Of a stretch of DNA of 64,000 bases, positions 8,615-59,695 are shown piece by piece (the stretch's first letter is position 1; every line of letters starts with the position of its first letter). The notes beneath the pieces are model-generated. The model worked only from the letters and a program-made list of their open reading frames with translations. It was not told the origin of the DNA and did not search any database. The DNA is taken from the NCBI GenBank assembly GCA_016789445.1, contig JAEUQT010000001.1:259603-323602 (forward strand), in the 5' to 3' direction. This stretch comes from a bacterium (lineage in GTDB: Bacteria; Patescibacteriota; Minisyncoccia; Phycocordibacterales; UBA2100). A program made the position numbers and the translations under genes.

Positions 8615-10144
8615 ATGTCATTAAAATTAATCTTGGTACTCCTCGCCCTCTCGGGAGCGGCGGGAATCGGATTCGGATACTTTCTCCGATGGATTATCTC
8701 GCTCGGTAAGCGCGGCTCGATGGAGCTCGAGATCAAGCAGATGAAGCTCGATGCTCAGGAAAGCGCGAAGCGCATCATCGAAGAGGCTGAGAAAGAGGCT
8801 AAGGAGAAGACGGAGACCCTTACCAACGAATTCAAGGAGAAGGAACGCGAACTGAAAGCCACTGAAGATCGTCTCGTCCGCAAAGAAGAGATGGTCGATC
8901 AGCGCCAGCAGAACGTAGATGCAGAAAACGAGTCCCTTAAAGCAAAAGCTGAGGAACTTCAGCGTCTGAAGGAAAAGGCCGAAGAAGGCATCAAACAACA
9001 GGCGGAGAAACTTGAAAAAATTGCAGGGCTGAGCGCCGAAGAAGCAAAGGCAGAGCTTATCTCTACTATTGAGAAGCGCTACGAAGCGGACATTGAAGGC
9101 CGCATGCGCAAGCTTGAGATCTCAGGTAACGAGAAACTTGAAGAGCGTGCACGCGAAATCCTCGTCACCTCGATCCACCGTCTCGGGAATTCGGTGGTCT
9201 CCGATGTCATCGCGACCACCATTTCCCTACCGAATGATGAGATCAAGGGCAAGATAATCGGTAAGGAGGGTCGCAATATCCGCACCTTCGAGAAAGCGAC
9301 CGGCGTGGACGTCATCATCGACGACACTCCGGGCACCATTACCCTTTCCTGCTACGATCCTGTTCGTCGCCAGATTGCACGTATCGCACTCGAGAACCTC
9401 ATCCTCGATGGCCGCATCCAGCCAGCGAAAATCGAAGAGGCGGTCCAGAAAGCTGAAGGTGAGATCAATAACATCATCAAAAAGAAGGGTGCCGATGCTG
9501 CCTTCGCTGCAAAGGTCACCAACCTCGATCCGAAGCTCCTCCAGATCCTCGGACGCCTCTACTTCCGCACCAGCTATGGCCAGAACGTCCTCGACCACTC
9601 GGTGGAGATGGCGAATCTCGCTGCCATGCTCGCCGAAGAGCTTGGTGCTAACGTCCAGGTCGCTCGCGCGGGCGCCCTCCTCCACGATATCGGTAAGGCG
9701 CTCGACCATGAGGTCCCCGGCACCCATGTCGAGATCGGCCGCCGCATCCTCCAGAAGTTCGGCGTCGATGAGCTCGTGATCAAGGCGATGCAGGCGCATC
9801 ACGAGGAATATCCGTACGAGACACCGGAGAGCATGATCGTCCAGGTGGCCGATGCGGTCTCTGGCGGTCGCCCAGGAGCTCGCCGCGACTCGGTAGAGAA
9901 CTACATCAAGCGCCTCGAGGACCTCGAAGCCATCGCCAATAACCACGAAGGTGTCGAGAAGAGCTTCGCGATCTCCGCGGGCCGCGAGGTTCGCGTTATC
10001 GTGAAGCCTGACGTCGTCAATGATCTTGATGCGCGCAAGCTTGCACGCGACATCGCCGATCAGATCGAGAAGGAGATGCAGTATCCGGGAGAGATCAAAG
10101 TCTCCGTCATGCGCGAGACGCGCGTCATCGAGTACGCACGATAA
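8615..10144 (+). CDS. rny: ribonuclease Y
   Basis: 509 aa with an N-terminal TM anchor, coiled coil, KH domain (GKIIGKEGRNIRTFE) and HD domain (LLHDIGKA). Confidence 0.9.
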   Translation: MSLKLILVLLALSGAAGIGFGYFLRWIISLGKRGSMELEIKQMKLDAQESAKRIIEEAEKEAKEKTETLTNEFKEKERELKATEDRLVRKEEMVDQRQQNVDAENESLKAKAEELQRLKEKAEEGIKQQAEKLEKIAGLSAEEAKAELISTIEKRYEADIEGRMRKLEISGNEKLEERAREILVTSIHRLGNSVVSDVIATTISLPNDEIKGKIIGKEGRNIRTFEKATGVDVIIDDTPGTITLSCYDPVRRQIARIALENLILDGRIQPAKIEEAVQKAEGEINNIIKKKGADAAFAAKVTNLDPKLLQILGRLYFRTSYGQNVLDHSVEMANLAAMLAEELGANVQVARAGALLHDIGKALDHEVPGTHVEIGRRILQKFGVDELVIKAMQAHHEEYPYETPESMIVQVADAVSGGRPGARRDSVENYIKRLEDLEAIANNHEGVEKSFAISAGREVRVIVKPDVVNDLDARKLARDIADQIEKEMQYPGEIKVSVMRETRVIEYAR

Positions 10145-11150: not shown

Positions 11151-11238
11151 GGCATTTCACGTGAAAACCCGTCTTCCTTGGGTGGACGGGTTTTCGCATG
11201 CCCTGGTCTCGTGTAGAGTATGAAGACCTTCGGGTACT

Positions 11239-11309
11239 GCGGGATTCGTTTAATGGTAAGACATCAGTTTTCCAAACTGAGGACAGGAGTTCGATTCTCC
11301 TATCCCGCA
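11239..11309 (+). tRNA. tRNA-Gly (anticodon TCC)
   Basis: Hand-folded cloverleaf: acceptor gcgggat/atcccgc, D-stem gttt/agac, anticodon stem tcagt/actga with loop tttccaa, T-arm aggag-ttcgatt-ctcct. No encoded CCA. Confidence 0.8.
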
Positions 11310-11408
11310 CTAGGAGTGAATAACAAATAAGCGCCCGTTCTGGGCGCTTATTTGTTCTAACGACGCGCAGCCTATCGCGAAGCGAGTATTCGGCACCAGA
11401 CTTACTAC

Positions 11409-11438
11409 AAAGAGGACGGTTCACGTGAACCGTCCTCT
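11409..11438. terminator. perfect 30-bp palindromic hairpin (contains TTCACGTGAA) downstream of minus-strand tRNA-Pro
   Basis: aagaggacggTTCACGTGAAccgtcctctt. Confidence 0.5.
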
Positions 11439-11450
11439 TTGTTCATTGTT

Positions 11451-11521
11451 TCGGGGAGCCGAGAATCGAACTCGGACTACATGGTCCCAAACCATGCGTA
11501 CTACCACTATACGACTCCCCG
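11451..11521 (-). tRNA. tRNA-Pro (anticodon TGG)
   Basis: Reverse complement folds with acceptor cggggag/ctccccg, anticodon stem catgg/ccatg with loop tttggga (G37), and T-arm ccgag-ttcgatt-ctcgg. No encoded CCA. Confidence 0.8.
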
Positions 11522-11609
11522 CAATCTCCTTCCCTCTCGAAATCCTCAGGATTCTAGCACTATTCTATTAAGGACACCACAGGCTGCTCCACGTCTTATA
11601 AGACGTCCT

Positions 11610-11993
11610 TTACAGGATCTGTTCGAAAAGCCTGCATTTCGCCTTACGAAGCTTCATATCCATGAGCACCCCCACTGCGTCGATCTGATATTCTCGCCCA
11701 TCTCCCTTCTCAGCCATATACAGCTCAGCGGTCCGCGCGATCTTCCTCAGCTTGGCAGAATGAATCTGCTCCTCAGGCATAAGCTCGGAGCTTTCACGTG
11801 AAATGTTATCCCAACGTCCGGATATGGCCTTTACTTCAACAAACCGCACTACCCTCTCTTTTTCGGCAATGATGTCTATCTCTCCCCACGGCTTCCTGAA
11901 GTTGCTTTCGATAATCCGATACCCCTTCCTGACTAGGTAATTCCTAGCTATTTCTTCCCCAAGCGCCCCGATGCCTGAAGTGGTCTGATTCAT
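11610..11993 (-). CDS. yraN: YraN-family (UPF0102) predicted endonuclease
   Basis: 127 aa with the pattern GEEIARNYLVRKGYRIIESNFR..GEIDIIA....FVEVK, typical of UPF0102. Confidence 0.7.
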   Translation of the reverse strand: MNQTTSGIGALGEEIARNYLVRKGYRIIESNFRKPWGEIDIIAEKERVVRFVEVKAISGRWDNISRESSELMPEEQIHSAKLRKIARTAELYMAEKGDGREYQIDAVGVLMDMKLRKAKCRLFEQIL

Positions 11994-12111
11994 GGTTCAC
12001 GTGAAAGCTGCAAAAGTATGTAGCTTATGTAACATATTGCTTGTGTCTGATAAATTTGGCTCAAATCAACGATATTCTCTAGGTATAGTACCGCTTTCAG
12101 ACTGTCTTATA

Positions 12112-12133
12112 TCCACATATCCCCGTGGTTATC
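12112..12133 (+). promoter_or_regulatory. two tandem DnaA-box-like 9-mers (aTATCCACA and TTATCCACA) in a 440-bp non-coding region
   Basis: Sequence tatatccacatatccccgtggttatccacatc. The second box is a perfect match to the consensus TTATCCACA. Confidence 0.4.
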
Positions 12134-12387
12134 CACATCTTGGACATGTACTGATAAAATGTGGCTTAAAACAAGGGTTTTATACGTACACAGGGCAGGG
12201 GATATGTCCGAAGTCTTATTTCAGTGAGACACCGGTACGATAAAGATTGACAGGAGATACGTACCTTCAGATCGCTCAGCTTCTTAACGCTCGCTGGCGG
12301 ATACTCGCTACGCTCGTGACTGCACGTCGTAGGGAAGGGGACCCAGTGCGATAAGCCTTTCAGGCTTCTCCACACGTCGCCGCAGGA

Positions 12388-12417
12388 AAAAGAAAAACCC
12401 CTCTCGGGGCCTTTCTT
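12388..12417 (-). terminator. terminator downstream of tRNA-Gly(GCC)
   Basis: Hairpin aaaaacccctctc-gg-ggcctttcttttt. Confidence 0.5.
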
Positions 12418-12431
12418 TTTGCCTGCTCCAG

Positions 12432-14391: not shown

Positions 14392-14719
14392 CATTTGGAT
14401 TTAGATGTTTGGCTTTATTGAAGCACTTTTTCCAATTTTTGGGACTTCTTTGAAGTCCCCACTTCAAAGGTAGTGCTCATCTAAGCTAAACTTATCCACT
14501 TAAAGAACACGGATACGGGTTTATGTCGAGTACGGTGTACCTGACATCGGTTTTCCCTCAGGCCAGCTTCCCTTATTACCTAGGGGAAGAACCTTTATAT
14601 GATCCAATGAAGGATCACTGAGATGAAGGATACTGCACTATCGGACACTGTAAAGGACGTCGTGTGGATAACTTCATGAGTGCCAGCATTCTCCTTTGTC
14701 CTTTATAAAGGACACCGAT

Positions 14720-29971: not shown

Positions 29972-30000
29972 TTTCTTCGCTGTTCTGCTCGGTCACACAT

Positions 30001-30026
30001 AAAATCCACGCCGACGCGTGGATTTT
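30001..30026 (+). terminator. terminator after rsmA
   Basis: aaaatccacgc-cgac-gcgtggattttt. Confidence 0.55.
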
Positions 30027-30117
30027 TGCGCGACCCCGACTCGGCCGTTTCGCCTTCTGGCGAAACATGCCTCCGTCTCAGTAGCTCCGTATCAAAGAGC
30101 GCGCAGGCGCTCTTTGA

Positions 30118-30444
30118 TTACTGGCTACTGCCCATCATGTCGATGTTGGTGCCTGGCCAGACAATAAGAGGGAAGATTGAAACAACACAGTAATACGGAG
30201 CGCTCGCGAGACCGAGAAGCCATTGGCCCGTATGTCGCGGCGGGCCGAACTGATACGTCTTCGTCGCCGGTGTCCAGATGAACGGACCACCACGAGGAGG
30301 GGAGAGGAACGCGTAGATCGCATTGTTGTAGCACGGACGGATCGTCGTGATCTGCCCACCAAAAGGAAACGCGTACGTCGTGAAGGGAACCGCAAGCAGG
30401 ATGACCCCGACGATGGAAGATACGCTAAGCGCGCGCATGTGCAC
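30118..30444 (-). CDS. small secreted hypothetical protein (108 aa)
   Basis: Signal peptide MHMRALSVSSIVGVILLAVPFTTYA, rich in Pro/Tyr/Trp. Its own terminator hairpin lies at 30091..30118. Confidence 0.45.
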   Translation of the reverse strand: MHMRALSVSSIVGVILLAVPFTTYAFPFGGQITTIRPCYNNAIYAFLSPPRGGPFIWTPATKTYQFGPPRHTGQWLLGLASAPYYCVVSIFPLIVWPGTNIDMMGSSQ

Positions 30445-30491
30445 ATTCTAACATCGCGCAGTGATGCACCAGCTATACTGTGTGTACGAAT

Positions 30492-31478
30492 ATGGTGATC
30501 AACGAAGGCGGGAACTATCAAGACATGATCGCCGGCATCGAAGCCGAGAAAAAAAGCGTTGTCATCACCGATGACGCAGACACGAAGAAGGAAGGGTGGA
30601 TCCATCGCCATCCGTTTCTTGCAACCATCCTCGGCATCGTCGGACTTTTGTTTCTCGGCATTGCCCTGGTCGCTAATCGCATCGATGTAAATCCTGCGAG
30701 TTCCAGTGGCGCATGGGGCGGTGCAGGCGGTGCGTTCTTTGGAACAATTAAGAACGCCATTCCTACAGGGGTTAATACAAGCGACGTCGTGGTACGGCTT
30801 CAGTCACCTGATGATGCGTATGCCGCGGTGCCGATTTACAAGCCAACGGAACAAACCGACGTGCCAGCCGGCGTCGACGACATCGCGTCGCTCCTTGCGC
30901 AATTAGTGCAACACACGCCGGTTACCCCAGCCTCCACTCAAGAACCGGCAACACCCGATAGTTATTCATTCATCCCACAAGGATTGGTGAGCACCGAACC
31001 AACCACCAAGAAATTAAGCGCTGAACAAGAGAGGCTCAAAAGCTACGGAAACGCCGTCGGTACCCACATAAAAGGATATGAGGATACGCACGCTGGCTCC
31101 GCACAGATCCTCAAGGACCACGTGGAGGACCGCACGAATCCGGATAAGATACGTGCGCTCAAGATCCTCGGGACCGACATGCAGCAATTGGGGAATGACC
31201 TTAAAGACTTAGCAGAAGTGCCGGCTGATATTGCTGGCATGCACCGCACCTACGCAAATGCATACTTCGCTGCGGGTGCGAATCTCATTTTGATAGCGGA
31301 CACCTCCAGCGACGAACAGTTCGTCGACGCAATAACCAAGTACAACGCGGTCGTCGAGAAGCTCTCAGTGCAATTCCAGCTTCTTGTCGCACTCTTCGGC
31401 ACCAATGAGGTGTCATTCTCCCAGTCGGAACCGGGAAGTATCTTCATGTTTAGTCCGAATCTCTCGCTCGCGCAGTGA
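30492..31478 (+). CDS. hypothetical membrane-anchored protein; first gene of the T4SS-like cluster
   Basis: TM segment FLATILGIVGLLFLGIALVA. A TATACT -10-like element lies immediately upstream. Start alternatives are GTG 30480, ATG 30492 and ATG 30525. Confidence 0.5.
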   Translation: MVINEGGNYQDMIAGIEAEKKSVVITDDADTKKEGWIHRHPFLATILGIVGLLFLGIALVANRIDVNPASSSGAWGGAGGAFFGTIKNAIPTGVNTSDVVVRLQSPDDAYAAVPIYKPTEQTDVPAGVDDIASLLAQLVQHTPVTPASTQEPATPDSYSFIPQGLVSTEPTTKKLSAEQERLKSYGNAVGTHIKGYEDTHAGSAQILKDHVEDRTNPDKIRALKILGTDMQQLGNDLKDLAEVPADIAGMHRTYANAYFAAGANLILIADTSSDEQFVDAITKYNAVVEKLSVQFQLLVALFGTNEVSFSQSEPGSIFMFSPNLSLAQ

Positions 31479-31490
31479 TATAATTTTCGC

Positions 31491-32351
31491 GTGAACTCGG
31501 GACGCTCTCGTGGGGTTTCTCCCATTGCCACTGCAGCCGCACTTTCCGTTGCGCTTCTTCTCGCGGCAATCGGGTCATATATCGGTGATCACGTTCGTCG
31601 ACCTTCTACTCAAGCGCCCAAAGCGGCTCCGACAGCGGCACAAGAACAGCGATATGCATCAGTAGAAGATGCGGACAAGAATGGCCTGCCGGATTGGCAG
31701 GACGAATTGATGCGCGGTGGCGTCTCGTTCAGTACGACCAGCGCCTCAACGACCGAATCACGCGACCCCGTAACTGCTCTCGGCACTTCCTTAATCAACT
31801 CCCTCGCAAGCGGTTACTCCTCGCTTAAGGAGTTCAATATGTATTCAGACGAACAGGCAGAGAAGCTGGCTACGACCTTGGCCGCAAACTTCAAAGCACC
31901 CGACACCACGGTGGCCCATACGATTGATGAACTCACGGTCGATCCCGATACCTCATCTGGCGCCATCCTAGAGTACCGCAGCGACATGCGTGTGGCGCTT
32001 GCAGGCCTCGTCGATCTCGAAGCGGAACCGGAATTCTCTTTGTTTGCGCGCTACATCCAGACCAATGACCCTAAGTGGCTTACGGAACTCGGTAAAGCCG
32101 CTGAACGTTATCGCACCGCCGAGACAAATCTCATGAAAGTTACGGTCCCGGACACCGCCGCATATCTTCACCTCCGTGCAACGAACGCGACCGGTACCTA
32201 TGCCCAGACACTGGAGCGACTTGTCCGATTTGCGAAAGACCCACTCGCAACCATGGCGCTTTTGAGAACGTATAATGAGTCTGAGCGAGAATACCTTCTC
32301 GCGTTTGATGCATTGGCGAAATTCTATGCTGAGAATACTAGCGGGAACTAG
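31491..32351 (+). CDS. hypothetical membrane-anchored protein (286 aa)
   Basis: GTG start, N-terminal hydrophobic segment IATAAALSVALLLAAIGSYI. No family recognised. Confidence 0.45.
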   Translation: MNSGRSRGVSPIATAAALSVALLLAAIGSYIGDHVRRPSTQAPKAAPTAAQEQRYASVEDADKNGLPDWQDELMRGGVSFSTTSASTTESRDPVTALGTSLINSLASGYSSLKEFNMYSDEQAEKLATTLAANFKAPDTTVAHTIDELTVDPDTSSGAILEYRSDMRVALAGLVDLEAEPEFSLFARYIQTNDPKWLTELGKAAERYRTAETNLMKVTVPDTAAYLHLRATNATGTYAQTLERLVRFAKDPLATMALLRTYNESEREYLLAFDALAKFYAENTSGN

Positions 32352-32364
32352 GGAAGATCGTGTC

Positions 32365-33924
32365 GTGCGGGCGATACTTTGCGCAGCGCTCGTGCTGTTT
32401 CTCCTCTCTATCGTTCCGGTCTTCGCACAAGAGGCAGAAGAGCCGGCCCCTACACCAACCCCGACTCCGAGCCCGACGCTCTCAAATGACGGTATCTTCG
32501 GATGCCGCGGCCAAGGAGCTAATATCGCAAACGTCGGTACGCTTTCCGCGATCGGCGGAGTGTATGTTCCCGTCAACGACGCAGCGGTAACGCTCAATAC
32601 CGGCTATCTCGTATATAAGGAATGCGTTCTCGATGCGGTTGCGCGCAAGATCGCTGAAAATTCCACATCCGAACAAGCGCGTCAGGTTATTAACGCAATC
32701 GGAAACGGTCGCGGCGGTAACCCTCAATACGTCGTGAATGAGCGCAACGAGATCAAGCAACAGAACAACATTCTCGTCGTGAACATGCTCCAGAACGCCG
32801 ATAACACCAATGCGGTCTGCTCGGCATTCCGTGGTTCCGTAAGAAGCACTATTGCACGCCAGTATGTCCTGAACACAAACCAGGCTGCTTCTCCGTTTAC
32901 CTGCACCATGCCGGGAGAGGGAAGCAGCTACTGGGAACGCCTCGCGGCACTGCGCGATCCGCGCAATAACGAATACGGCGCATATCGAATCGTCGACGAA
33001 TTGCGACGACGAACGCTTTCATATAACGAATTCAACCAACGCGAACGCTGGCAACGATCGGGAGGTTTCTACGACACGACGAGCAGCAACGAGGACCCGA
33101 TGAACTCGAACATCATCACGCCCGGCTCTATCGTGCAACGCTCGCTTGATCAGATGCTCGGCTCCGGTTTCCGTCAACTTGAAAGCGCAGATGAGATCGA
33201 TCAGGTGGTAGGTAATCTCTGGGGAGGTCTTACGACCCAGCTCGTCGCCGATACTCGAGGCCTTTCGGGCCTTACACAGTCGGTCAATGGACAGCCGTCA
33301 TACATCGATCGCATGACGGCACAGACCGCCGCAAGCGTCCGCCAACAGGCGGCCAACACCGCCCTCAGCGTTATCGGGGCCGCTCGCCAGATCGAGACGA
33401 CCTATCGCCAAGCGAAAGAGGGAATCGCGACCGCGCTCTCTAATTCCATCGAGCAGCTCCGTGCAGCGGAGAATCAATGCTGGGGACTCATTATCCCGAA
33501 AGTACAGGAAGCTGCAGGAACAGGAACACAACTCAATATCGCAACCTCGACCCGTTTCTCGCAGCCGATCATCGATGCGCAGATCGCACCGCTCGCCACC
33601 AGCACCATTCGCGATATCCGCAATTCCGACGCAGCTATCGCGCTTCTCAACGAGCTCATCTCAAGCGTATCGAACAGCGCTTCGCAAGCGAACCAGCAGC
33701 AGGCACTCCTTCGTCTCGACACCATGGTTGCAAACCGCCAGCTTCATACCGCTACGGATGCAACAAACGCGTCGACGCAGCGCGACAACGTGGCGAGCGC
33801 GCTTACGAAGCTTGTCGAGGACACGGTCAAAGCCTGGGGGGATAGCACCGATCCGAACGTCGGATGGTGCAACGTCAATAATCAGGAGGTGGTTACGAAG
33901 TGGCTTAACGAGTGGAGGATATGA
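32365..33924 (+). CDS. large secreted hypothetical protein (about 520 aa)
   Basis: Signal peptide RAILCAALVLFLLSIVPVFA followed by a Pro/Thr linker. Start ambiguous between ATG 32326 (26-nt overlap with the previous gene) and GTG 32365. The stop overlaps the next start (ATGA). Confidence 0.5.
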   Translation: MRAILCAALVLFLLSIVPVFAQEAEEPAPTPTPTPSPTLSNDGIFGCRGQGANIANVGTLSAIGGVYVPVNDAAVTLNTGYLVYKECVLDAVARKIAENSTSEQARQVINAIGNGRGGNPQYVVNERNEIKQQNNILVVNMLQNADNTNAVCSAFRGSVRSTIARQYVLNTNQAASPFTCTMPGEGSSYWERLAALRDPRNNEYGAYRIVDELRRRTLSYNEFNQRERWQRSGGFYDTTSSNEDPMNSNIITPGSIVQRSLDQMLGSGFRQLESADEIDQVVGNLWGGLTTQLVADTRGLSGLTQSVNGQPSYIDRMTAQTAASVRQQAANTALSVIGAARQIETTYRQAKEGIATALSNSIEQLRAAENQCWGLIIPKVQEAAGTGTQLNIATSTRFSQPIIDAQIAPLATSTIRDIRNSDAAIALLNELISSVSNSASQANQQQALLRLDTMVANRQLHTATDATNASTQRDNVASALTKLVEDTVKAWGDSTDPNVGWCNVNNQEVVTKWLNEWRI

Positions 33925-36032
33925 TCGCATCCCGAACATTCCGCCTCGCCCTCGTCTTTCTCGTCTCGGCACTTTTCATTGCTGCCATAATTACGCCGCA
34001 TATTGCCCTCGGCCAGGAAGCGGCAGCACAGGCAACCATCGAGCCTAATGATTCTTGCAGTATCTGGAACGGAACCTGGGGATTCAACTGTGGCATCTGG
34101 TACCCATTCATGAGCGCGTTGGGAACCTTACTCCTTTCGTTCAGTATCAGTGTACTCGTGGTGCTGGGAGCAATCTTCGATCAATTCCTCTCGGCGCTGG
34201 TCGTCTCTTTTCAGGACACACTCGTCTCACTCAACATACTCGGTGGCATTCAGATCGCTTGGCAGCTTTTCCGCGATATCACCAACGTCGTCATTATCGG
34301 CGTCTTCGTCTTCGTCGCCATCATGACCATCCTCGGCAGCACAGAGTATGGGACCAAACGGCTTGTCTCTCGCGTTCTCATCGTAGCGATCCTGATCAAT
34401 TTCAGCCTCCTTTTCACACGCGTCGTCATTGAAAGCACCAATTTCGTATCAGCTCAATTCGCGCGGTCTATGCCGAACAATGCGCTCACCGCTGGGGTTG
34501 CGCAGAGCTTCTTGCAGGCATTTGGTATCGACGGCACGATCAGCGGCACCTACGAGCTTACGCGCCGCGTCGCAACGGAAACGGATAGCGGCTGGGCGGC
34601 ACTCATCTATGGAGTCGTCGCGGGCAGCGTGCTCTTAGTCATCGCACTCGTCTTTCTCTATGGGATAGTCATCATCAGCGCTCGCGCGCTGCTTCTGGTG
34701 TTCATGATGATTACTGCACCGATCGCGTTCGCATCATTCTTAATCCCCACATGGTCAAACCAGGCATATATCGGTTGGAACAATTGGTGGTCAAACCTCC
34801 TCAAGGCGGCGATGTTCGGCCCGATATTCATGGTGTTCCTCTGGATCGCGATGCAGATAATCGCCCGGGGGAGCGTGGCAAACGCAGGAGCGGCTCTCGG
34901 CAAACTCGCGAATGACCCATCCAAGATGGATGTGAACGCGTGGCAGCAGCTGATCTTCCTCATGATCGGTACCGGCGTTCTCTTTATCGGCATACGCGCA
35001 TCAAGTTCATTCGCAGCGTCCATCGGCGGCTTCAACTGGGCGACTGTAGCATCACTACTGCCGGTCACTCTCGGTTCTCGCTTCGCAGCAGCTCCTGCAC
35101 TTCGTCGCTTCGTCGGCCAGCCTGCGCTTGAACGACAACTTCAGTACGAAGATGACATCAAGCGAGCGAAAGCGCGAGGCGACTGGTCTCAAGCAGCACT
35201 TCTTCAGAAAGACTATTCGAAGGCTGCGAAAATGGCATCTCGTGACTTTAATGCGATGAATTCCAATGTTTCGAAGCTTCTCACGAAATCACTTGGCGTT
35301 CCCAGCATGCTGGGCGGAGAAAAGAAATTGGGCGGAGCTGCTGGTATCGCGACTGCCGCGGCAAAAGAAACAGCGAAGGAGCTCAAGAACCTTCAGCCTT
35401 CGGCTCAAGATCTCGCTTCTGCAAGCAAAGCGGCGGCAAGCGAGGTTCGAGAGGGGAATAAGGCGCTCGCAGAATCTCTCAAGGGTGATCGTGATGCGGC
35501 TGTCGCACGACGAGAAGCCGCGGGCGGATCAGGTTCGGGTACGAGGACTGAACAGAAACAGATTACCGACACCATCCGCAAGGCGGTTGAAGATGGCAGC
35601 TCTTCGGGCGCTAACGCTGCGCAGCGCCAGATCGAACACAAACGCGAAGTGGATGCCGAACGAAAAGCTGAGATCGGTCAGGTTACTAACAAGATTGCCG
35701 AAGTTAAGACCGACGTGAACCGAAATATCGCACAGGAAATCAATGACGCGCAGGCCGCCCTAGGTCCGCTCTCTATGCTCGATGCAGACGTAACAAATGC
35801 CACTAACCGGATGACAATGAATCAGTTCGAGACAAATCAAAAGGCGATTGAAGCTAGTCAGAATGCGCAGTTAGGTGCCATTGATATGCTACAGAGCGCA
35901 ATTCAAGACTCTCTTTCCCGAAGCGGGAATGATAATGCAGCAACAGCGAAAATTGCTATGAAGCTGGTTGAAAAACAGAATCCGAACGTTGGGCGAGTTA
36001 TGAGCATTGCAAGACAAAATGGTCTTAAATAA
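33921..36032 (+). CDS. VirB6/TrbL-like polytopic membrane protein with a long hydrophilic coiled-coil C-terminal extension
   Basis: N-terminal signal/TM, a Cys-containing loop, then about 6 TM helices over residues ~60-380, followed by ~320 aa of Ala/Lys/Glu-rich hydrophilic sequence. This topology is typical of T4SS VirB6/TrbL. ATGA start-stop overlap with the upstream gene. Confidence 0.55.
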   Translation: MIASRTFRLALVFLVSALFIAAIITPHIALGQEAAAQATIEPNDSCSIWNGTWGFNCGIWYPFMSALGTLLLSFSISVLVVLGAIFDQFLSALVVSFQDTLVSLNILGGIQIAWQLFRDITNVVIIGVFVFVAIMTILGSTEYGTKRLVSRVLIVAILINFSLLFTRVVIESTNFVSAQFARSMPNNALTAGVAQSFLQAFGIDGTISGTYELTRRVATETDSGWAALIYGVVAGSVLLVIALVFLYGIVIISARALLLVFMMITAPIAFASFLIPTWSNQAYIGWNNWWSNLLKAAMFGPIFMVFLWIAMQIIARGSVANAGAALGKLANDPSKMDVNAWQQLIFLMIGTGVLFIGIRASSSFAASIGGFNWATVASLLPVTLGSRFAAAPALRRFVGQPALERQLQYEDDIKRAKARGDWSQAALLQKDYSKAAKMASRDFNAMNSNVSKLLTKSLGVPSMLGGEKKLGGAAGIATAAAKETAKELKNLQPSAQDLASASKAAASEVREGNKALAESLKGDRDAAVARREAAGGSGSGTRTEQKQITDTIRKAVEDGSSSGANAAQRQIEHKREVDAERKAEIGQVTNKIAEVKTDVNRNIAQEINDAQAALGPLSMLDADVTNATNRMTMNQFETNQKAIEASQNAQLGAIDMLQSAIQDSLSRSGNDNAATAKIAMKLVEKQNPNVGRVMSIARQNGLK

Positions 36033-36037
36033 TCATT

Positions 36038-36586
36038 ATGCCCGGGCAAGATCCTGAACTAAATAAACACATTGCCGAACGATTCAAGGCATTGCCGCCG
36101 GTCGTCCAGAAAGCGATTACCTCTTCAGATATTGAGAAGAATCTCCGCACCATGGCAGATGGTCAAAAATTACATGTGGACCAATGGCAGGCACTCGAAA
36201 ACGAGGTCATGTTCTCCTTACTGGGCTTCAAGCCCGTAGCAGAGTTGGAAAAAAACCTCGTAAAGTCGGTTGGAGTTACCGCCGAAGTAGCTCATGTGCT
36301 TGCGGTAGATGTAAATCGCATCGTCTTTGAACCAATTCGACAAGAACTAGAGAGAGAACTACAACACCCGGCGGCCCAGGAAGCTGCCGTAAGCGGCACC
36401 GAAGCCGCACGAGCACAGGCGATTTCACAAGAAGCGGCGGCGGCAGCTCCCGCACCGACTCCACCCACTCCAAAACCTGACGCCACTGCTGCGCGAGCGC
36501 CTGCTTCGGGGGCATATAAACCGGGGGAGACCTCTGCACAACGAAAATCGGTTACCGACGATCCATATCGTGAAGTGCCACTCTGA
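36038..36586 (+). CDS. hypothetical protein (182 aa), Ala/Pro-rich C-terminus
   Basis: ATG 6 nt after the VirB6-like stop. No motif recognised. Confidence 0.45.
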   Translation: MPGQDPELNKHIAERFKALPPVVQKAITSSDIEKNLRTMADGQKLHVDQWQALENEVMFSLLGFKPVAELEKNLVKSVGVTAEVAHVLAVDVNRIVFEPIRQELERELQHPAAQEAAVSGTEAARAQAISQEAAAAAPAPTPPTPKPDATAARAPASGAYKPGETSAQRKSVTDDPYREVPL

Positions 36587-36629
36587 AAGATGAAGTAGTG
36601 GCGCACAAATACTTGGTATACTGCTGGGG

Positions 36630-37127
36630 ATGCAGTTCCAGGTTCCTCAATTCATCGAGGTGGAGGACAAGATCTTCGGTCCGCTGACGTTCAAGCAGTT
36701 CGTCTATATCACGGGCGGAGCCGGTATTTCCTACATGCTCTGGCGATCGCTTCCGATCTACGTCGCCGTCCCATTCATCGCACTCTTCGGCGGCCTCGGG
36801 ATCTCACTGGCCTTTTTCCAATACAACGGCCAACCGTTCATCCAATCCCTTGAGCATGCCTTTTTCTACTTCACCCGCAACAAGCTCTACCTTTGGAGCA
36901 ACGAAGAAGCTATCAATACCCGTAAGAAGGCGGCAACTATCACCACCGCCTCGGCAACTCCCTACGTACCGCACCTCTCTGACAGCAAACTGCACGACCT
37001 TTCGTGGAGCTTGGATATCCAGGAGCGCATCAACGCCGGCACCGCCGACGCGGAGGATAGGGAACAGGTCTCGCCTCTGAAGGACTTGGTCGCTCCGGTA
37101 CGCACCGCGAAGGACGCTCTCATTTGA
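36630..37127 (+). CDS. PrgI-family/VirB3-like small membrane protein of Gram-positive-type T4SS
   Basis: 165 aa. Motif FKQFVYITGGAGISYMLW plus a second TM (VPFIALFGGLGISLAFF). Sits immediately upstream of the VirB4 ATPase, as PrgI/VirB3 does. Confidence 0.5.
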   Translation: MQFQVPQFIEVEDKIFGPLTFKQFVYITGGAGISYMLWRSLPIYVAVPFIALFGGLGISLAFFQYNGQPFIQSLEHAFFYFTRNKLYLWSNEEAINTRKKAATITTASATPYVPHLSDSKLHDLSWSLDIQERINAGTADAEDREQVSPLKDLVAPVRTAKDALI

Positions 37128-37128
37128 T

Positions 37129-37818
37129 ATGCCACAAGACACCGCACAATCTGCCTCCTCGAAGGTCAGCAGCCGTTCGACACAGGAGTTCGTCCCGATC
37201 AGCGAGGTCCGTGACGGCATCGTGGTCCTCAAGGATGGGAGCCTGCGTGCAATCCTTCTCGCTTCATCCATCAACTTCGCCCTCAAATCGGAGGACGAAC
37301 AGACCGCCTTCATCGTCCAGTTCCAGAATTTCCTTAACTCATTGGACTTTTCGTGCCAGATCTTCGTCCAGTCCCGCATGTTGGACATCCGTCCGTACAT
37401 CGCGACCTTGGAAGTAGCGTACAAGAAACAGATGGACGACCTCATGCGTATCCAGATCCGTGAATACATCGAGTTCATCAAGAGTTTCACGGAGGCAGCG
37501 AATATCATGACGAAGAACTTCTTCGTGGTCGTGCCATACGCTCCCGCAGCGCTCCAATCGCTCAATAGCGGCGGTATCGCGAGCAAGCTCCCGTTCGGAC
37601 AGAAGACCTCTCCCAGCGCCGCCGAAGCCAATCGCACCTTTGAAGAGAAGGTCTCGCAGCTCGAACAGCGCGTCGGTATCGTGCAGCAGGGATTGGTGCG
37701 TTGCGGCGTCCGCACCGTACAATTAGGCACCGAGGAGGCGATCGAGCTCTTCTACAAGCTCTTCAACCCGGGCGAAGAAGGGAAGCCGATGCCAGTGGAT
37801 AACATCACGCCGCAGTGA
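37129..37818 (+). CDS. VirB4/TrbE N-terminal fragment, encoded as a separate ORF
   Basis: The segment VPISEVRDGIVVLKDGSLRAILLASSINFALKSEDEQTAFIVQFQNFLNSL matches the remembered VirB4 N-terminus pattern (lvdD-tialrnGdlmrvfrvqGvafe-a-ddaein-w-erlN-llrni). It ends at TGA 37816-37818. Confidence 0.55.
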   Translation: MPQDTAQSASSKVSSRSTQEFVPISEVRDGIVVLKDGSLRAILLASSINFALKSEDEQTAFIVQFQNFLNSLDFSCQIFVQSRMLDIRPYIATLEVAYKKQMDDLMRIQIREYIEFIKSFTEAANIMTKNFFVVVPYAPAALQSLNSGGIASKLPFGQKTSPSAAEANRTFEEKVSQLEQRVGIVQQGLVRCGVRTVQLGTEEAIELFYKLFNPGEEGKPMPVDNITPQ

Positions 37819-37819
37819 T

Positions 37820-39769
37820 ATGGGACTTTTTGATTTCCTTACGAAAAAGAGCGACGAGCCGGCAGCGGTCTTACCGGTCTTGCCGGAAGAAATCTATCGC
37901 ACCGGCGTCCTTGGCCTGCAGGACGTCATCGCTCCGCACGCACTGAAGATCTCTCCGCGCGAACTCGATCTGGGGGAGAAGATCGCCCGCACCTTTTTCG
38001 TCATCTCGTACCCTCGCTTCCTCACGACCGGCTGGTTTGCGCCGATCATCAACATGGACAAGGTGATCGACGTCTCGATTTACGTCCATCCGATGGATAC
38101 GAACGACATGCTTCGTAAGTTCCAGAAGAAAGTCGCGGAGGTACAGAGCCAGATCAGCGCTCGCGAGGAGAAGGGGATGGTGCGTGATCCGGTGCTGGAC
38201 ACCGCCTATTCAGACCTCGAAAAGCTCCGCGACAGCCTTCAGCAGGCACAAGAGCGCATCTTCGAAGTCGGGCTCTATCTCACCATCTACGGGTCCACCC
38301 GTGAGGAGATCGATAAGACGGAGAGCGAGATCCGCAGCATCTTGGAGTCACGCCTCGTGTACATCCGCCCCGCACTCTTCCAGCAGGAACAGGGCTTCCG
38401 CTCGGTCATCCCGCTCGCGGGCGACGAGCTGGGCGTGCACACCAAGCTTAATTCCGCACCGCTTTCCTCGATCTTCCCGTTCATTTCCTTCGACCTTACG
38501 TCGGATAGGGGAATCCTCTATGGCATCAATCGTCACAACTCGTCCCTCATCCTCTTCGATCGGTTCTCGCTCGAAAACTACAACTCGGTGACCTTTGCGA
38601 AGTCCGGCTCCGGTAAGTCGTATACGACGAAGCTGGAGATCCTGCGAAGCCTCATGTTCGATACCGAAGTCATCGTCATCGACCCGGAACGAGAATACGA
38701 ATACCTTGCGGAAACCGTCGGCGGCCGCTACTTCAATATCTCACTCTCGTCTGAGCACCATATCAACCCGTTCGACCTTCCGATCCCACGCGAAGACGAA
38801 GCTCCGTCGGATGTGCTCCGTAACAACATCATTACGCTCGTGGGTCTTTTCCGCATCATGCTCGGCGGACTTACTCCGGAAGAGGACGCGATCATCGACA
38901 AGGCGATCACGGAGACCTACGCCCTCAAGGACATCACCGCCGATGCGAACTTCGCCTCGATCGAACCACCGCTTCTTTCTGACTTCGAGCTCGTCCTCAG
39001 CGGCATGGAGGGTTCGGAATCGCTCGTGCAACGACTCTCGAAATACACGAAGGGAACATGGTCGGGATTCATGAACCGCCCGACGAACGTGGACATGAAC
39101 AAGAAGCTTGTCGTCTTTTCCGTACGCGACATGGAAGACGATCTGAAGCCGGTCGCGATGTACATCATCACCCACCACATCTGGAATACCGTCCGCAAGG
39201 AACTCCGCAAAAGATTGCTCGTCATCGATGAAGCGTGGTGGATGATGAAATCCCAAGACACCGCCTCCTTCCTCTTCGGTATCGCAAAGCGCGGCCGTAA
39301 GTACTATCTCGGCCTCTCGACGATCACCCAGGACGTGAACGACTTCCTCACTTCGCCCTATGGAACGGCCATGATCACCAACTCGTCGATCCAGATCCTC
39401 CTGCGCCAGTCACCGACATCAGTCGATCTCGTCCAGCAGACCTTCAAACTCTCCGATGAAGAGAAGTATCTCCTCCTCGAGTCGGATGTGGGGGAAGGAA
39501 TCTTCTTCGCCGGTCTCAAACATGTCGCGATCAAGGTGATCGCCTCGTATACCGAGGACCAGATCATCACGTCAGACCCGTCCCAGATCCTTGCAATCAA
39601 GAAAGCGAAGCAGGAACTGGCTGCATCGAATGAAATCCCCGGTGGCCCTGCCGCACCGGCGGCCCGCGCAAGCGCCGCTGAAGCACTGAAGGCGATGGCT
39701 CTCAAGGAAGCGAGCGGCACTGCGCAACAGGCATCACAGGAACCGCTTCCACCGACCAGCGTCCAGTAG
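37820..39769 (+). CDS. VirB4/TrbE/PrgJ-type T4SS ATPase (main body)
   Basis: 649 aa with Walker A FAKSGSGKSYTT and Walker B LLVIDEAWWMM. The arrangement follows VirB4 family order. It starts 1 nt after the preceding stop (TGA-T-ATG), in a different frame. Confidence 0.75.
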   Translation: MGLFDFLTKKSDEPAAVLPVLPEEIYRTGVLGLQDVIAPHALKISPRELDLGEKIARTFFVISYPRFLTTGWFAPIINMDKVIDVSIYVHPMDTNDMLRKFQKKVAEVQSQISAREEKGMVRDPVLDTAYSDLEKLRDSLQQAQERIFEVGLYLTIYGSTREEIDKTESEIRSILESRLVYIRPALFQQEQGFRSVIPLAGDELGVHTKLNSAPLSSIFPFISFDLTSDRGILYGINRHNSSLILFDRFSLENYNSVTFAKSGSGKSYTTKLEILRSLMFDTEVIVIDPEREYEYLAETVGGRYFNISLSSEHHINPFDLPIPREDEAPSDVLRNNIITLVGLFRIMLGGLTPEEDAIIDKAITETYALKDITADANFASIEPPLLSDFELVLSGMEGSESLVQRLSKYTKGTWSGFMNRPTNVDMNKKLVVFSVRDMEDDLKPVAMYIITHHIWNTVRKELRKRLLVIDEAWWMMKSQDTASFLFGIAKRGRKYYLGLSTITQDVNDFLTSPYGTAMITNSSIQILLRQSPTSVDLVQQTFKLSDEEKYLLLESDVGEGIFFAGLKHVAIKVIASYTEDQIITSDPSQILAIKKAKQELAASNEIPGGPAAPAARASAAEALKAMALKEASGTAQQASQEPLPPTSVQ

Positions 39770-39770
39770 T

Positions 39771-40079
39771 GTGAAGTACATCGACCGACACACCGCCATT
39801 AAGATGATCGCGACGGCAGCGGCAGTCGACGCAGCGCAGGGTGCCCTCACCGCATCGTATGTGGGCATCCTTTTTGCACCACTCCTCAGCGCCGGCGCCG
39901 CCTATGGATTCTGGAAATGGTTTGCCCGCCACGAAGGAGAGAGCCCGGATCCACGTAAGAACCCCCGCCTCATGACCATCGCGCTTGAATTCATTCCCGG
40001 CCTCGACGCATTACCGCTCTGGACCATCACCATCATTCTTGCGGTCATCGCGCATAACCGCGCTTCTCGGGAGGTATAA
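39771..40079 (+). CDS. small two-TM membrane protein (102 aa)
   Basis: GTG start 1 nt after the VirB4 stop (TAG-T-GTG). Hydrophobic helices are visible. Confidence 0.45.
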   Translation: MKYIDRHTAIKMIATAAAVDAAQGALTASYVGILFAPLLSAGAAYGFWKWFARHEGESPDPRKNPRLMTIALEFIPGLDALPLWTITIILAVIAHNRASREV

Positions 40080-40087
40080 TATCCGGG

Positions 40088-41122
40088 ATGGTCTCTCTCC
40101 GGAGGAGCACATGGGGTCTTCTCGTACTTCTGATTGTCCCGTTTTTTACGCACGCACAACTTCTTACCGGACTCGAGCGACCGCTTGATGTCTCAATGAC
40201 TCCGCAATATCCCGCAGCAGGGGAAGAAGTGCGGCTGAGTGTCTCAAGCTACGGACTGGATCTCGATCGCAGCGCCATCATCTGGTACGCGGACGGGAAA
40301 GAGATCGCCCGGAATACCACAGAAACAAAGGTAACCGCCGGCAAATTGGGCTCTCTCATAAATATCACCGTCGTCGCAGAAGAAACGGATGGACTCATCG
40401 GCAGCGGTAGCGCTCGGATCCGCCCGACCGAAGTCGATCTTATATGGAGCTCGGATTCCTACGCGCCGCCGTATTTCAAAGGAAGGAAGCTCGCGGGAAG
40501 CAGCGCTCGGATCCGCGCGGAAGCACTGGTACGCTTCACGCGCGCCGATGGTACGATGATACCTTCAAACGAAATCATCTATACCTGGCATCGCGGCACG
40601 ACACGCATCCTGCAGGGAAGGGGCCGTTCAAGTGTGGAATTCGCCGGTCCTGCATTATTCAGCAGCGAGGAGGTCACGGTATCCGCACAATCTACTGACG
40701 GTGCGTATGTGGGCAGAGCATCGGTGCGCATCTCAGGGGTCGATCCGACGCTTGAGCTCTACGAGAACCATCCGCTTTTCGGCGTCCTCTATCATCGCGC
40801 GCTTACCGGCAGCGTGGTTACCGCCGAGAAAGAGCAGCGCGTCACCGCAGTCCCGTATTTCGCGCACGTCAGTACCCCTGAAGAGAAAGCCCTTTCATAC
40901 TCGTGGTCCGTCGCCGGAGGACCGGTTCGACCAAATCCGGATGAACCGCAAAACCTCACCGTCACTTCCAATGGCTACGCCGGACCCGCACGCATCGAAC
41001 TTGATCTCACGAGCGCGAGCGATCTTTTCTTGAAAGCGCGAGGAAGCTGGGAATTGGTATTCAGCGAATCAGCATTGTTCTCGGGATCAGGAAGTGATGA
41101 TCCGTTTGCGCGACCCGAATAG
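40088..41122 (+). CDS. secreted hypothetical protein (344 aa)
   Basis: Signal peptide MVSLRRSTWGLLVLLIVPFFTHA. Composition suggests a beta-rich protein. Confidence 0.5.
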   Translation: MVSLRRSTWGLLVLLIVPFFTHAQLLTGLERPLDVSMTPQYPAAGEEVRLSVSSYGLDLDRSAIIWYADGKEIARNTTETKVTAGKLGSLINITVVAEETDGLIGSGSARIRPTEVDLIWSSDSYAPPYFKGRKLAGSSARIRAEALVRFTRADGTMIPSNEIIYTWHRGTTRILQGRGRSSVEFAGPALFSSEEVTVSAQSTDGAYVGRASVRISGVDPTLELYENHPLFGVLYHRALTGSVVTAEKEQRVTAVPYFAHVSTPEEKALSYSWSVAGGPVRPNPDEPQNLTVTSNGYAGPARIELDLTSASDLFLKARGSWELVFSESALFSGSGSDDPFARPE

Positions 41123-41124
41123 AT

Positions 41125-42366
41125 ATGAAAAAACACGAGACCACGTTCATGTATATCGGCTTTGCGGCCATCGGGCTTCTTCTCGTCGGCCTCGCAGGTT
41201 GGTACTTCTTTATCTCCCGTCAGACCGCAGATCTCGAGACCCTGAGAGAGTCCCGCGGTTTCGACATCGGCGTACCGTCATTCGGCGGCACTCGTGGTTC
41301 AACCGCAGAAAATATCGAGGGAGGTTTCGGACTCGCTCCGTCTTCTGAACAACCCTCTGCCCAAGAAGGGGAAGAACCTCGTGCGCCACGTTTCTGGCGC
41401 GTAAGCACCAGTCCTATTGCAGGCGCTGGTTTCGTAATGATCGATTCCGTTCCGGTGCTGCGCTACGTAGAACGCTCAACCGGACATGTATTTGATGTGA
41501 ATCCGATGACCGGCACGATCACCCGCAGAACCAATCGTCTGATTCCTAAAGTATACGAGGCGATCGTGGGGCCGCACGATGCCGTGATTCATCGTACGAT
41601 TACCGCAGACGGGGAACGCGAGACTTTCGTAGGACAACTCGCGACGACGACCGTCGACGGATTCACTCCGCTCACCGGCACCGATCTCGGACCTGATGTG
41701 CGCGACATCGGATTCACCAAATCCGGCATCGTCTTCCTCTCGGCAACTGAGAGCGGCGCCACGCAATTGATAGAAGCAGCGATCGATGGATCCAAGCCGG
41801 TCGAAAAACGACTATTATCCGCGGGTGATTTCAAGCTTGAGAGCCTCGTCGATGGCCGCACCATCCTCACTGAACGTCCGGCAAGCGGCATTCCGGGATA
41901 TGCGTATGAAGCAGGCACCACACTCATCCCGCTCGCCCGCGCAGTACCGGGACTTACGCTCGCAGCACGAGCAAGTTCAACGGCAGTCATCATAGGTGCG
42001 GATGACGGATCCAAGCTCTCCCTCGCGGTGCGCCCGACTCGGGACGCTTCACTCGTACCGCTCGATCTCGCGACCGTCGCCGATAAGTGTGTCTGGATGC
42101 CGGGAACCAGTCTCACCGCATACTGCGCCGTACCGCGCACGCTGCAACCGCTTGGATATCTCACCAACTGGCATCGCGGGACGATACACACCAGCGATTC
42201 GTGGCACCTTGTCGATGTCGGAGCAGGGAAGACGGAGAAATTCTTCGAGATCCGCGAGGATGATGCTATCGATGTGGAGCGCCCGATCACCGACGAAGGA
42301 GGGAATTACATCGCATTCATAAATGCCCGCGATAAATCGCTCTGGTTACTGCGTATAATTGAATAG
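41125..42366 (+). CDS. membrane-anchored hypothetical protein (413 aa)
   Basis: N-terminal TM FMYIGFAAIGLLLVGLAGWYFFI, then a large extracytoplasmic domain. Confidence 0.5.
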   Translation: MKKHETTFMYIGFAAIGLLLVGLAGWYFFISRQTADLETLRESRGFDIGVPSFGGTRGSTAENIEGGFGLAPSSEQPSAQEGEEPRAPRFWRVSTSPIAGAGFVMIDSVPVLRYVERSTGHVFDVNPMTGTITRRTNRLIPKVYEAIVGPHDAVIHRTITADGERETFVGQLATTTVDGFTPLTGTDLGPDVRDIGFTKSGIVFLSATESGATQLIEAAIDGSKPVEKRLLSAGDFKLESLVDGRTILTERPASGIPGYAYEAGTTLIPLARAVPGLTLAARASSTAVIIGADDGSKLSLAVRPTRDASLVPLDLATVADKCVWMPGTSLTAYCAVPRTLQPLGYLTNWHRGTIHTSDSWHLVDVGAGKTEKFFEIREDDAIDVERPITDEGGNYIAFINARDKSLWLLRIIE

Positions 42367-42368
42367 GT

Positions 42369-42722
42369 ATGCCTTGTCAGGAAACATCACCCGGGAATTC
42401 AGGTTGCGGGACCGTCGCAGAAAGCCGCACCGTATATATGTCGAACCTGTTCAATCCGAACAATACGGACCTGCAGGCATTCTTCAATATCCTCTTTACG
42501 GTCGCCATATCTATCGGTGCCATCCTTGCGGTTCTCCGGCTCGCATATGCAGGCGTCGTCTATATGACGACCGACCTCGTGACCAGCAAGCAGAATGCGC
42601 GTCAGATGATCGCCGATGTCGTCTTGGGACTCATCGTCCTCTTGGCGATCTGGGTTATCCTCTTCCAGATCAATCCCGACCTTCTTAACCTCGATATCCT
42701 CCGCAGCGTACGGACTTCGTAG
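42369..42722 (+). CDS. candidate T4SS pilin (VirB2/TrbC-like small hydrophobic protein)
   Basis: A charged leader is followed by two hydrophobic helices (FFNILFTVAISIGAILAVLRLAYAGVVYM ... VVLGLIVLLAIWVILFQI). Size and topology are typical of a VirB2 propilin. Alternative start ATG 42438. Confidence 0.45.
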   Translation: MPCQETSPGNSGCGTVAESRTVYMSNLFNPNNTDLQAFFNILFTVAISIGAILAVLRLAYAGVVYMTTDLVTSKQNARQMIADVVLGLIVLLAIWVILFQINPDLLNLDILRSVRTS

Positions 42723-44511: not shown

Positions 44512-44700
44512 GGCGGAAAAATAGCACGTATTTCCTTGCCTTTCAAGCGGCAAAGTGGGGGAGAAGTGAGTTATCCACAGGTTATAAACATGTGGATGAA
44601 TACCCCCTACCGCTTCCCGACAGACACCGAGAGCGTATAATGCTTCTATATATGCGTGCGTGCGTCTCGATAGAGGGAGGTTGTTTGGATATCCACACCT
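44512..44700. other. oriC part 1 (rpmH-dnaA intergenic) with DnaA boxes and the dnaA promoter
   Basis: TTATCCACA at 44571-44579 (perfect), TGTGGATGA at 44591-44599 (reverse orientation), aTATCCACA at 44689-44697, and a TATAAT element near 44634. Confidence 0.7.
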
Positions 44701-46050
44701 ATGATGACTAATCGAGAATTGTGGCAGAACGCCCTCGTCCAGATAGAGCTTGGCACCTCCGAAGCCTCATTCCGTACCTGGTTCCGTAATACGGACATCG
44801 TCTCGAGAGACGCCAATATCGTCCAGATCGCCGTTCCCTCCAAGATCGTCAAAGAGTGGCTCATGGATAAGCACCATAAGCTCATCTTAGGGACCCTTCG
44901 CTCGCTCGATAACACCATCCGCTCCGTCGAATACGTAGTCCATCGCTCAGCAGGGGAGCCTCGCCGCCAAGAGAAGCCACAACCACAACAGCAGAATGCT
45001 GCCTTAGATCTGGGAACCCTCTACATCGACAAGCGGGATAACCTCAACCCGCGATATACCTTCGATACGTTTGTCGTCGGCCCCTTCAATCAGCTCGCGC
45101 ACGCGGCGGCAAAGGCGGTTATCGAGCGCCCGGGCCTCGCGTATAACCCGTTCTTCGTCTACGGCTCAAGCGGCCACGGCAAGACTCACCTCATCCAGGC
45201 GATCGGGAACCATTTCAAGAAGATGCACACCAACAAGAAGGTCTTCTACGTCTCTTCGGAACGTTTCGCGGTGGACTTCATCAATGCGGTCTCTCGTGGT
45301 CGCGCAAATGAGTTCAAGGATCAATACCGTCAATATGACGTCCTCATCATGGATGACGTGCAATTCATGGCGGAGAAGGAGCGCACCCAGGAAGAGCTCT
45401 TCCACCTCTTCAATGCGATGCACGACAATAACAAGCAGATCATCTTCTCGTCTGATAAGCACCCTATGCTGCTCCCGGGCTTCGAAGATCGAATCCGCGG
45501 CCGCCTCTCGGCAGGTGTCATCATGGAAATTCCTGAACCGGATGTGGAAAGTCGTACCGCGATCATCAAAGCGAAAGTCGAACAGCTCGGCTTCAGCCTT
45601 GCCGATGACATCGTAGGCCACATCGCCGAGAGCGTTCGTGGCAATATCCGCGAACTCGAGGGTATCCTCAACATGATCGTCTGCAAGTCCCAGCTTAAAG
45701 GGAAGGCGATTTCGCTTCCGGATGTCCGTGCACTCATCAAGCACAATGTCCGACCGAACAAGGGAGTCTCCGTCGAAGAGGTGGTGCGTCGCATTGCCCA
45801 GTACTACGAAGTCGCCGAGAAAAGCATCTACGAAAAGACTCGGAAGAAGGAAGTGGTCAAACCACGCCAGATCATCATGTACGTCTTGCGGGAAGAGTTC
45901 AGCGTGTCGTATCCTTCGATAGGGGAGAAACTGGGTGGCCGCGACCACACGACGGTCATCCACTCGTGCGAAAAGATCAAAGAAGAGATCAAGCGGAACA
46001 ACTCGCTTGAACAGGAGCTCGAGCATATCCGCACGCTTGTCCACGCCTAG
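44701..46050 (+). CDS. dnaA: chromosomal replication initiator protein DnaA
   Basis: 449 aa. AAA+ motifs [10 protein letters not shown] and DDVQF, and a C-terminal DNA-binding domain. Confidence 0.95.
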
Positions 46051-46385
46051 CAGTATGAACTCCACCGACCTTCAGCAGGCTCACCATTCCAGGGCCGCTG
46101 AGGTGGAAGACATGGCGCATACCGGTGTGGGTAACCTGTGGACAGGTGAAGGATCGGTAATGGGGATAAGCGATGCGCGAAAGAAGGACAGACGCGGGGA
46201 TATCGTTATTACAGACTTTTCCGCAGTAATCCCCACCGCCTATCCCGGGCAATCGACAGGGTATTCCACAGGAGGTATGTACGAAAAAACGGCACGAGAT
46301 ATGGATATTTCAGGCTTATCCACCTATCCACGCTGCTAATAGTAATAATAAGTATTTATTTAGAAAGAATTATAAAAATACCCGT
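46051..46385. other. oriC part 2 (dnaA-dnaN intergenic) with DnaA boxes and an AT-rich DNA-unwinding element
   Basis: TTATCCACC at 46316-46324, TATCCACGC at 46325-46333 and tATTCCACA at 46262-46270. A 44-bp AT-rich run (taatagtaataataagtatttatttagaaagaattataaaaata) lies at 46337-46380. Confidence 0.65.
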
Positions 46386-59687: not shown

Positions 59688-59695
59688 TTTACATG

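Follow-up and report, generated by a model that had tools for sequence, protein, structure and literature searches.

The four copies of the palindromic 10-mer TTCACGTGAA clustered at the hup–tRNA–yraN locus very probably form an origin-proximal parS cluster, at which ParB would be loaded for chromosome segregation and SMC recruitment. The window, the whole 64-kb stretch of DNA analyzed, derives from a Kaiserbacteria-like member of the Patescibacteria, also referred to as CPR, a huge uncultured group. parS is the textbook chromosomal 'centromere', the loading site for ParB next to the bacterial replication origin. The assignment is based on (i) the identity of the core with that of known parS sites, (ii) the proximity to oriC, (iii) the restriction of the motif to a single locus of the DNA examined, and (iv) its conservation at the nucleotide level, including within coding sequence. 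From these sequence features, we infer that the genome encodes a ParB that would bind these sites despite their non-canonical outer positions.

The exact 10-mer is found at positions 11156, 11420, 11793, and 11996, the four copies spanning 850 bp, and is absent from the rest of the 64-kb window, a local restriction already proposed in the first-pass annotation of this DNA and upheld by the recount, with dinucleotide-preserving shuffles yielding a mean of 0.11 copies and none of 100 shuffles reaching four. That annotation also considered that the motif might be common everywhere; no further copy occurs in ~18 kb of flanking DNA of the same organism, taken from public-assembly contigs (~8 kb added on the left and ~10 kb on the right, ~82 kb in total), and within these ~82 kb, of a genome that probably comprises a further ~0.6-0.9 Mb, the motif does not behave as a genome-wide repeat. 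Neither the 1- and 2-mismatch variants of the 10-mer (25 in the window vs 28 expected) nor the bare CACGTG hexamer (12 vs 15 expected) are enriched, and the signal therefore resides in the exact 10-mer. The elements of the cluster are as follows:

11153-11168, no strand assigned: site 1, CATTTCACGTGAAAAC, 12/16 positions of canonical parS, containing the 12-bp core TTTCACGTGAAA
11407-11442, no strand assigned: perfect 36-bp palindrome, directly downstream of tRNA-Pro (minus strand)
11417-11432, no strand assigned: site 2, CGGTTCACGTGAACCG, 12/16 positions of canonical parS, at the centre of the 36-bp palindrome
11610-11993, minus strand: yraN, UPF0102 family (PF02021), 127 aa, hosting site 3
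11790-11805, no strand assigned: site 3, GCTTTCACGTGAAATG, 12/16 positions of canonical parS, within yraN
11993-12008, no strand assigned: site 4, TGGTTCACGTGAAAGC, 13/16 positions of canonical parS, upstream of yraN

The 10-mer of site 1 starts 6 nt past the hup stop codon, ahead of the hup terminator hairpin into which the site runs (-30.5 kcal/mol), site 3 codes for I-S-R-E in the variable loop that follows the EVKA motif of YraN, and the 10-mer core of site 4 stops 2 nt short of the yraN ATG. The placements described earlier, after the hup stop, inside yraN, and upstream of the yraN start, thus match the sequence and the tRNA and ORF calls. A perfect palindrome around the second copy had likewise been described; it exists, but its length is 36 bp and not 30 bp. 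This palindrome scores as a terminator, with a 16-bp stem and a folding energy of -28 to -33 kcal/mol, and resembles a hairpin that terminates transcription from both directions, downstream of tRNA-Pro. All independent Logan assemblies of this organism (L002-L006 and L091-L093) stop within it, and the hairpin centred on this candidate parS site is a systematic breakpoint in short-read assemblies, which calls for caution among assemblers. Copies 1 and 3 extend to the full 12-bp TTTCACGTGAAA and copy 4 does so on one side only; in terms of the core (T)TTCACGTGAA(A), the exact 10-mer is present in all four sites and 11-12 bp of the core in three of them.

A full-text literature search with TTCACGTGAA returned many ParB/parS papers, PMC4368675 among the matches. 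This 10-mer forms the unchanging centre of chromosomal parS sites established by experiment, including (i) TGTTNCACGTGAAACA in Bacillus subtilis and Corynebacterium glutamicum, (ii) AGTTTCACGTGAAACT in Streptococcus pneumoniae, (iii) GTTTCACGTGAAAC in Mycobacterium smegmatis, and (iv) TGTTTCACGTGAAACA in Hyphomonas (PMC7022226, Table 1). The mismatches of sites 1-4 to the canonical 16-mer, which they match at 12, 12, 12, and 13 positions, respectively, all fall in the outer 2-3 bases of each arm; only one site of the window lies within three mismatches of canonical parS when the full 16 bp are tested, and the G at position 2, canonical in parS, is present in three of the eight half-sites. With the outer arms non-canonical, the central 12 bp would have to provide most of the recognition for any ParB that binds these sites. 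The CACGTG core initially put forward is too narrow a definition, since the conserved unit measures 12 bp and reaches 16 bp in the more distant relatives.

Compared with the parS sites of the B. subtilis Spo0J and Caulobacter crescentus ParB systems, the palindromes of the window share the central 10-12 bp of TGTTNCACGTGAAACA, the low copy number as far as the ~82 kb examined show, the location near oriC, and the occurrence in both coding and non-coding DNA, but differ in the arms, which deviate at the outer 2-3 positions (12-13/16). The presence of several sites near the origin is also shared with Pseudomonas aeruginosa (parS1-4), S. pneumoniae (four sites), and C. glutamicum (10 sites); in those clusters as in the present one, the total number is kept while individual sites vary (PMC7022226, Table 1). 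Unlike those clusters, the four sites occupy only 850 bp, in and around yraN throughout the clade, and are not next to parAB. In B. subtilis, a parS site lies inside spo0J, a DNA site within an ORF. The site within yraN resembles it in being kept within an ORF and constraining codon choice, but differs in its host gene and in being often duplicated in frame (8 codons, 24 bp), with a repeated [I/V]SRE. The Noc-binding site (NBS) of Firmicutes, TATTTCCCGGGAAATA, displays the same overall architecture and is bound by a ParB paralogue; identity with NBS was rejected, since the NBS core is CCCGGG and all four sites carry CACGTG. Noc is, to our knowledge, restricted to Firmicutes. The eukaryotic E-box/G-box shares the CACGTG hexamer, a resemblance only, as the conserved unit here comprises 12-16 bp; the bHLH and bZIP families that recognize it are unrelated and, as far as we know, absent from bacteria.

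The comparison with relatives relies on 80 loci from different species (L007-L086), labelled Candidatus Kaiserbacteria, Paceibacterota, Parcubacteria, or Patescibacteria, which were retrieved with RNase Y (8615-10144) as the probe (62-81% identity) and comprise ±10 kb around that gene. In their 1.21 Mb, TTCACGTGAA occurs 75 times where 1.15 copies would be expected, and almost every copy falls in the syntenic hup–tRNA-Gly–tRNA-Pro–yraN–tRNA-Gly–tRNA-Arg–CCA locus; a search for the motif near yraN and the tRNA genes of relatives had been suggested in the annotation. The usual arrangement comprises one or two copies within yraN and one copy 0-100 bp upstream of its start, the upstream site being present in most relatives, and yraN is the anchor of the conserved palindrome cluster. 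The yraN loci devoid of an exact copy mostly display 1- or 2-mismatch versions at the same positions, such as the four sites of the form TTTCACGTGTAA in L063 and the several TTTCATGTGAA(A) and TTTCACATGAAA variants in L038. The extended consensus in relatives is TTTCACGTGAAA, with the flanking T or A found in 93% of half-sites. Among the more distant relatives, L060, L067, L068, L070, and L074 carry copies within the gene of the CCA-adding enzyme, and L051, L052, and L065 contain the perfect canonical 16-mer TGTTTCACGTGAAACA together with extra copies that retain the arms TGTTTC/GAAACA around a variable centre, which is the pattern of ParB half-sites.

The individual positions differ in their histories. 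The orthologous position of site 3 is kept in ~40 species, often with a second copy at a spacing of 24 bp; the species of the window has lost one member of this yraN-internal pair. The site after hup occurs in the window species only, no relative having an exact copy there, and site 1 is therefore a lineage-specific gain; the site after tRNA-Pro was also gained in the window species, a similar one being found only in L008. Exact sites typically number 2-4 per locus, with a maximum of six, and more when near-matches are included. The sites thus turn over while their number is kept, which fits selection on the cluster and not on single positions. Two genes of this locus in relatives are missing from the window: a serine protease gene, which relatives have between tRNA-Gly(tcc) and tRNA-Pro, and a gene for a membrane protein, located in relatives between yraN and tRNA-Gly(gcc). 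No remnants of either gene were found in the window. Across L007-L086, the tRNA genes Gly(tcc), Pro(tgg), Gly(gcc), and Arg(tcg) follow a constant order, on either strand, an arrangement suggesting that single tRNA genes of the hup–CCA locus were inverted in place again and again.

Inside yraN, the site is kept at the DNA level. Across 46 aligned YraN sequences, the sites map to the variable loop after the EVKA motif, which typically reads EVKA-[I/V]SRE-x3-5-[D/G][I/V/F]SRE; the two internal copies share the reading frame, are usually 24 bp apart, and look like an in-frame duplication of an 8-codon unit. The codons TCA-CGT-GAA encode 41 of the 48 SRE tripeptides of the loop, against ~1.4% expected from the usage of TCA, CGT, and GAA in the rest of the same genes (0.22×0.14×0.47). 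Since YraN identity among these species is only ~35-64%, the uniformity of the codons shows that the nucleotides are constrained rather than the peptide; common descent raises the raw count of 41/48, yet cannot explain the missing synonymous change.

The replication origin is placed at ~44.5-46.4 kb because the GC-skew minimum and DnaA boxes coincide there. The cumulative GC skew declines steadily, reaches its lowest value at 44-46 kb, and increases thereafter, DnaA boxes are found on both sides of dnaA, before dnaN, and jag and yidC precede dnaA on the opposite strand. The corresponding features are as follows:

44571-46324, no strand assigned: probable oriC region, from the GC-skew minimum and the DnaA boxes
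44701-46050, plus strand: dnaA
46386-47486, plus strand: dnaN

The palindrome cluster lies ~33 kb from dnaA/dnaN and the GC-skew minimum, an origin-proximal location such as that of parS, and in the relative L044 dnaA is just ~5.5 kb from the cluster. Two additional observations concern the surroundings of the origin. A type IV secretion-like gene cluster (~30000-42700, plus strand), comprising PrgI, a TraC-like protein, a VirB4/TraG-type ATPase, a T4SS pilin, and several unannotated proteins, abuts jag/yidC and the origin. In a single strain, L088, an IS1595-family transposase gene (8974-9819 of L088) separates yidC from dnaA, within or beside the presumed oriC; the insertion is found neither in the window, where the spot corresponds to ~44.0-44.7 kb, nor in L087.

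DnaA boxes also occur in the vicinity of the palindromes:

12109-12137, plus strand: tandem DnaA boxes ATATCCACA and TTATCCACA, 20 bp apart, 115-140 bp upstream of yraN
14663-14671, minus strand: perfect DnaA box, conserved between the genes of the CCA-adding enzyme and ExoIII

The tandem module, with the consensus gtccTTTATCCACAtatccCCAgagTT(A/T)TCCACAg, accompanies the cluster in ~40 species, 70-330 bp upstream of yraN, and perfect DnaA boxes number 76 in the 1.21 Mb of the relatives, against 9.2 expected. The module was considered as a true origin and rejected: the GC skew shows no sign change there, either in the window or in the average of 26 relatives, and in L044 it is positive on both sides of the module. 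Given the missing switch in skew sign, the module is probably not an origin; it may instead be a DnaA-regulated promoter or a DnaA-titrating site. The module falls in a 425-bp non-coding stretch (12006-12430) located where relatives have a gene for a 345-aa membrane protein; this stretch, in which the DnaA-box/promoter-like region is retained (TCCACA-17-TAAAAT, plus a TG motif), has at its end a long hairpin of terminator type adjoining tRNA-Gly(gcc) and may yield a short transcript. An Rfam scan of 11.1-12.9 kb at a relaxed threshold recovered only the tRNAs and noise. Elsewhere in the window, a tRNA with the anticodon UUA (59695-59768, minus strand; clean ARAGORN cloverleaf, 70 bits in Rfam) would read the UAA stop codon; the lengths of the ORFs in the window do not point to stop-codon recoding across the genome, and this tRNA may be a suppressor or phage-related.

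The search for ParB and ParA included (i) motif regular expressions, (ii) tblastn with B. subtilis Spo0J, the query being 100% identical to a database entry, and Soj, (iii) a small ParB HMM run on six-frame segments, and (iv) Pfam annotation of the genes from -8 to +74 kb, and retrieved neither protein in the window and its flanks nor within ±10 kb of RNase Y in the 80 relatives. Searches of a protein database with a Spo0J/Thermus ParB profile and a synthetic ParB consensus returned only Bacillus- and Clostridia-type proteins. It is conceivable, though improbable, that the lineage has no canonical ParB and that the parS-like palindromes and tandem DnaA boxes form a different chromosome-maintenance element, which could be a centromere or a DnaA-control locus read by another protein, possibly one linked to YraN; in Escherichia coli, yraN adjoins diaA, which encodes the DnaA-initiator-associating factor. 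Under the preferred assignment of the palindromes as parS, and by analogy with the established knowledge of ParB/Spo0J, ParB dimers would recognize each palindrome via their helix-turn-helix domains, and the bound ParB would then bind CTP, close into clamps, and slide to the flanking DNA. A partition complex would thereby assemble around the hup–tRNA–yraN locus and recruit the SMC condensin and, where ParA is present, would drive apart the newly replicated origin regions.

The annotation had proposed an operator for a dimeric regulator, and the part of that proposal that describes a specific, clustered, dimer-type site holds, although the match of the 10-mer to the parS core went unrecognized there. 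An operator array through which a dimeric transcription factor controls yraN and the neighbouring tRNA and hup units is nevertheless very unlikely: perfect palindromes are suited to binding by a homodimer, site 4 covers the ribosome-binding region of yraN, stopping 2 nt ahead of the ATG, and relatives keep a site in the ~100 bp that precede yraN, but the distance to the yraN start ranges from 0 to ~100 bp, two to three of the four sites lie off promoters (in an ORF, in a terminator stem, after a stop codon), and the sites of distant relatives shift into the gene of the CCA-adding enzyme. The operator role fits poorly because the sites also occupy ORFs and terminators, move between genes, and have no regulator gene adjacent or elsewhere in the locus, and the core, like the 16-bp consensus of the relatives, is that of parS. 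The description of the copies as a locus-specific repeat family is accurate as a description, but only as that. An origin as miniature mobile repeat remnants spread locally, or as an RNA-level or structural module of small hairpins or terminators, is highly improbable. Site 2 does form the tip of a terminator-like hairpin with a 16-bp stem and site 1 abuts the hup terminator; an extended palindrome surrounds site 2 only, however, the flanks of the four copies share nothing beyond the 12 bp, a 12-mer alone cannot form a stable hairpin, the 5' region of yraN folds at only -7.1 kcal/mol and makes no use of the 12-mer, Rfam gives no family besides the tRNAs, and conservation at fixed in-codon positions in multiple species is unlike a mobile repeat.

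The remaining alternative takes the palindromes as sites recognized by YraN itself, which belongs to a family predicted to be PD-(D/E)xK-type nucleases, or by another nuclease or methylase of the CACGTG type. Dimeric type II enzymes typically act on palindromes with a CACGTG centre, and the sites lie in and directly upstream of yraN in ~40 species, but a restriction or modification site would be distributed genome-wide or avoided, whereas CACGTG is about as frequent in the window as expected and the 10-mer occurs in a single locus of 850 bp, and more distant relatives have their sites in the CCA gene. YraN is, as far as we know, near-universal in bacteria, including species in which ParB has been shown to bind the same sequence; the parS sites of such species are compiled in PMC7022226. 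Recognition by YraN or such an enzyme is scarcely credible.

The palindromes therefore remain best described as a candidate parS cluster, of which the tight, clade-wide tie to yraN lies outside what the parS model explains. parS itself is already known; new here is a candidate cluster in a Kaiserbacteria-like member of the Patescibacteria, for which a literature search on ParB/parS in Patescibacteria, CPR, or Saccharibacteria retrieved no relevant paper, nor did it find published work on chromosome segregation in this group. Apart from the embedding in yraN and the conserved DnaA-box module, such a cluster is an expected feature of a bacterial chromosome, and the in-frame embedding and the adjacent module are its more unusual details. 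The one or two in-frame copies of the putative parS in yraN illustrate cleanly how a DNA-binding site can dictate which codons are used. For the organism, the cluster represents a concrete candidate centromere and, in combination with dnaA/dnaN and the DnaA boxes, identifies the origin domain, which is useful for orienting and closing genomes of this kind.
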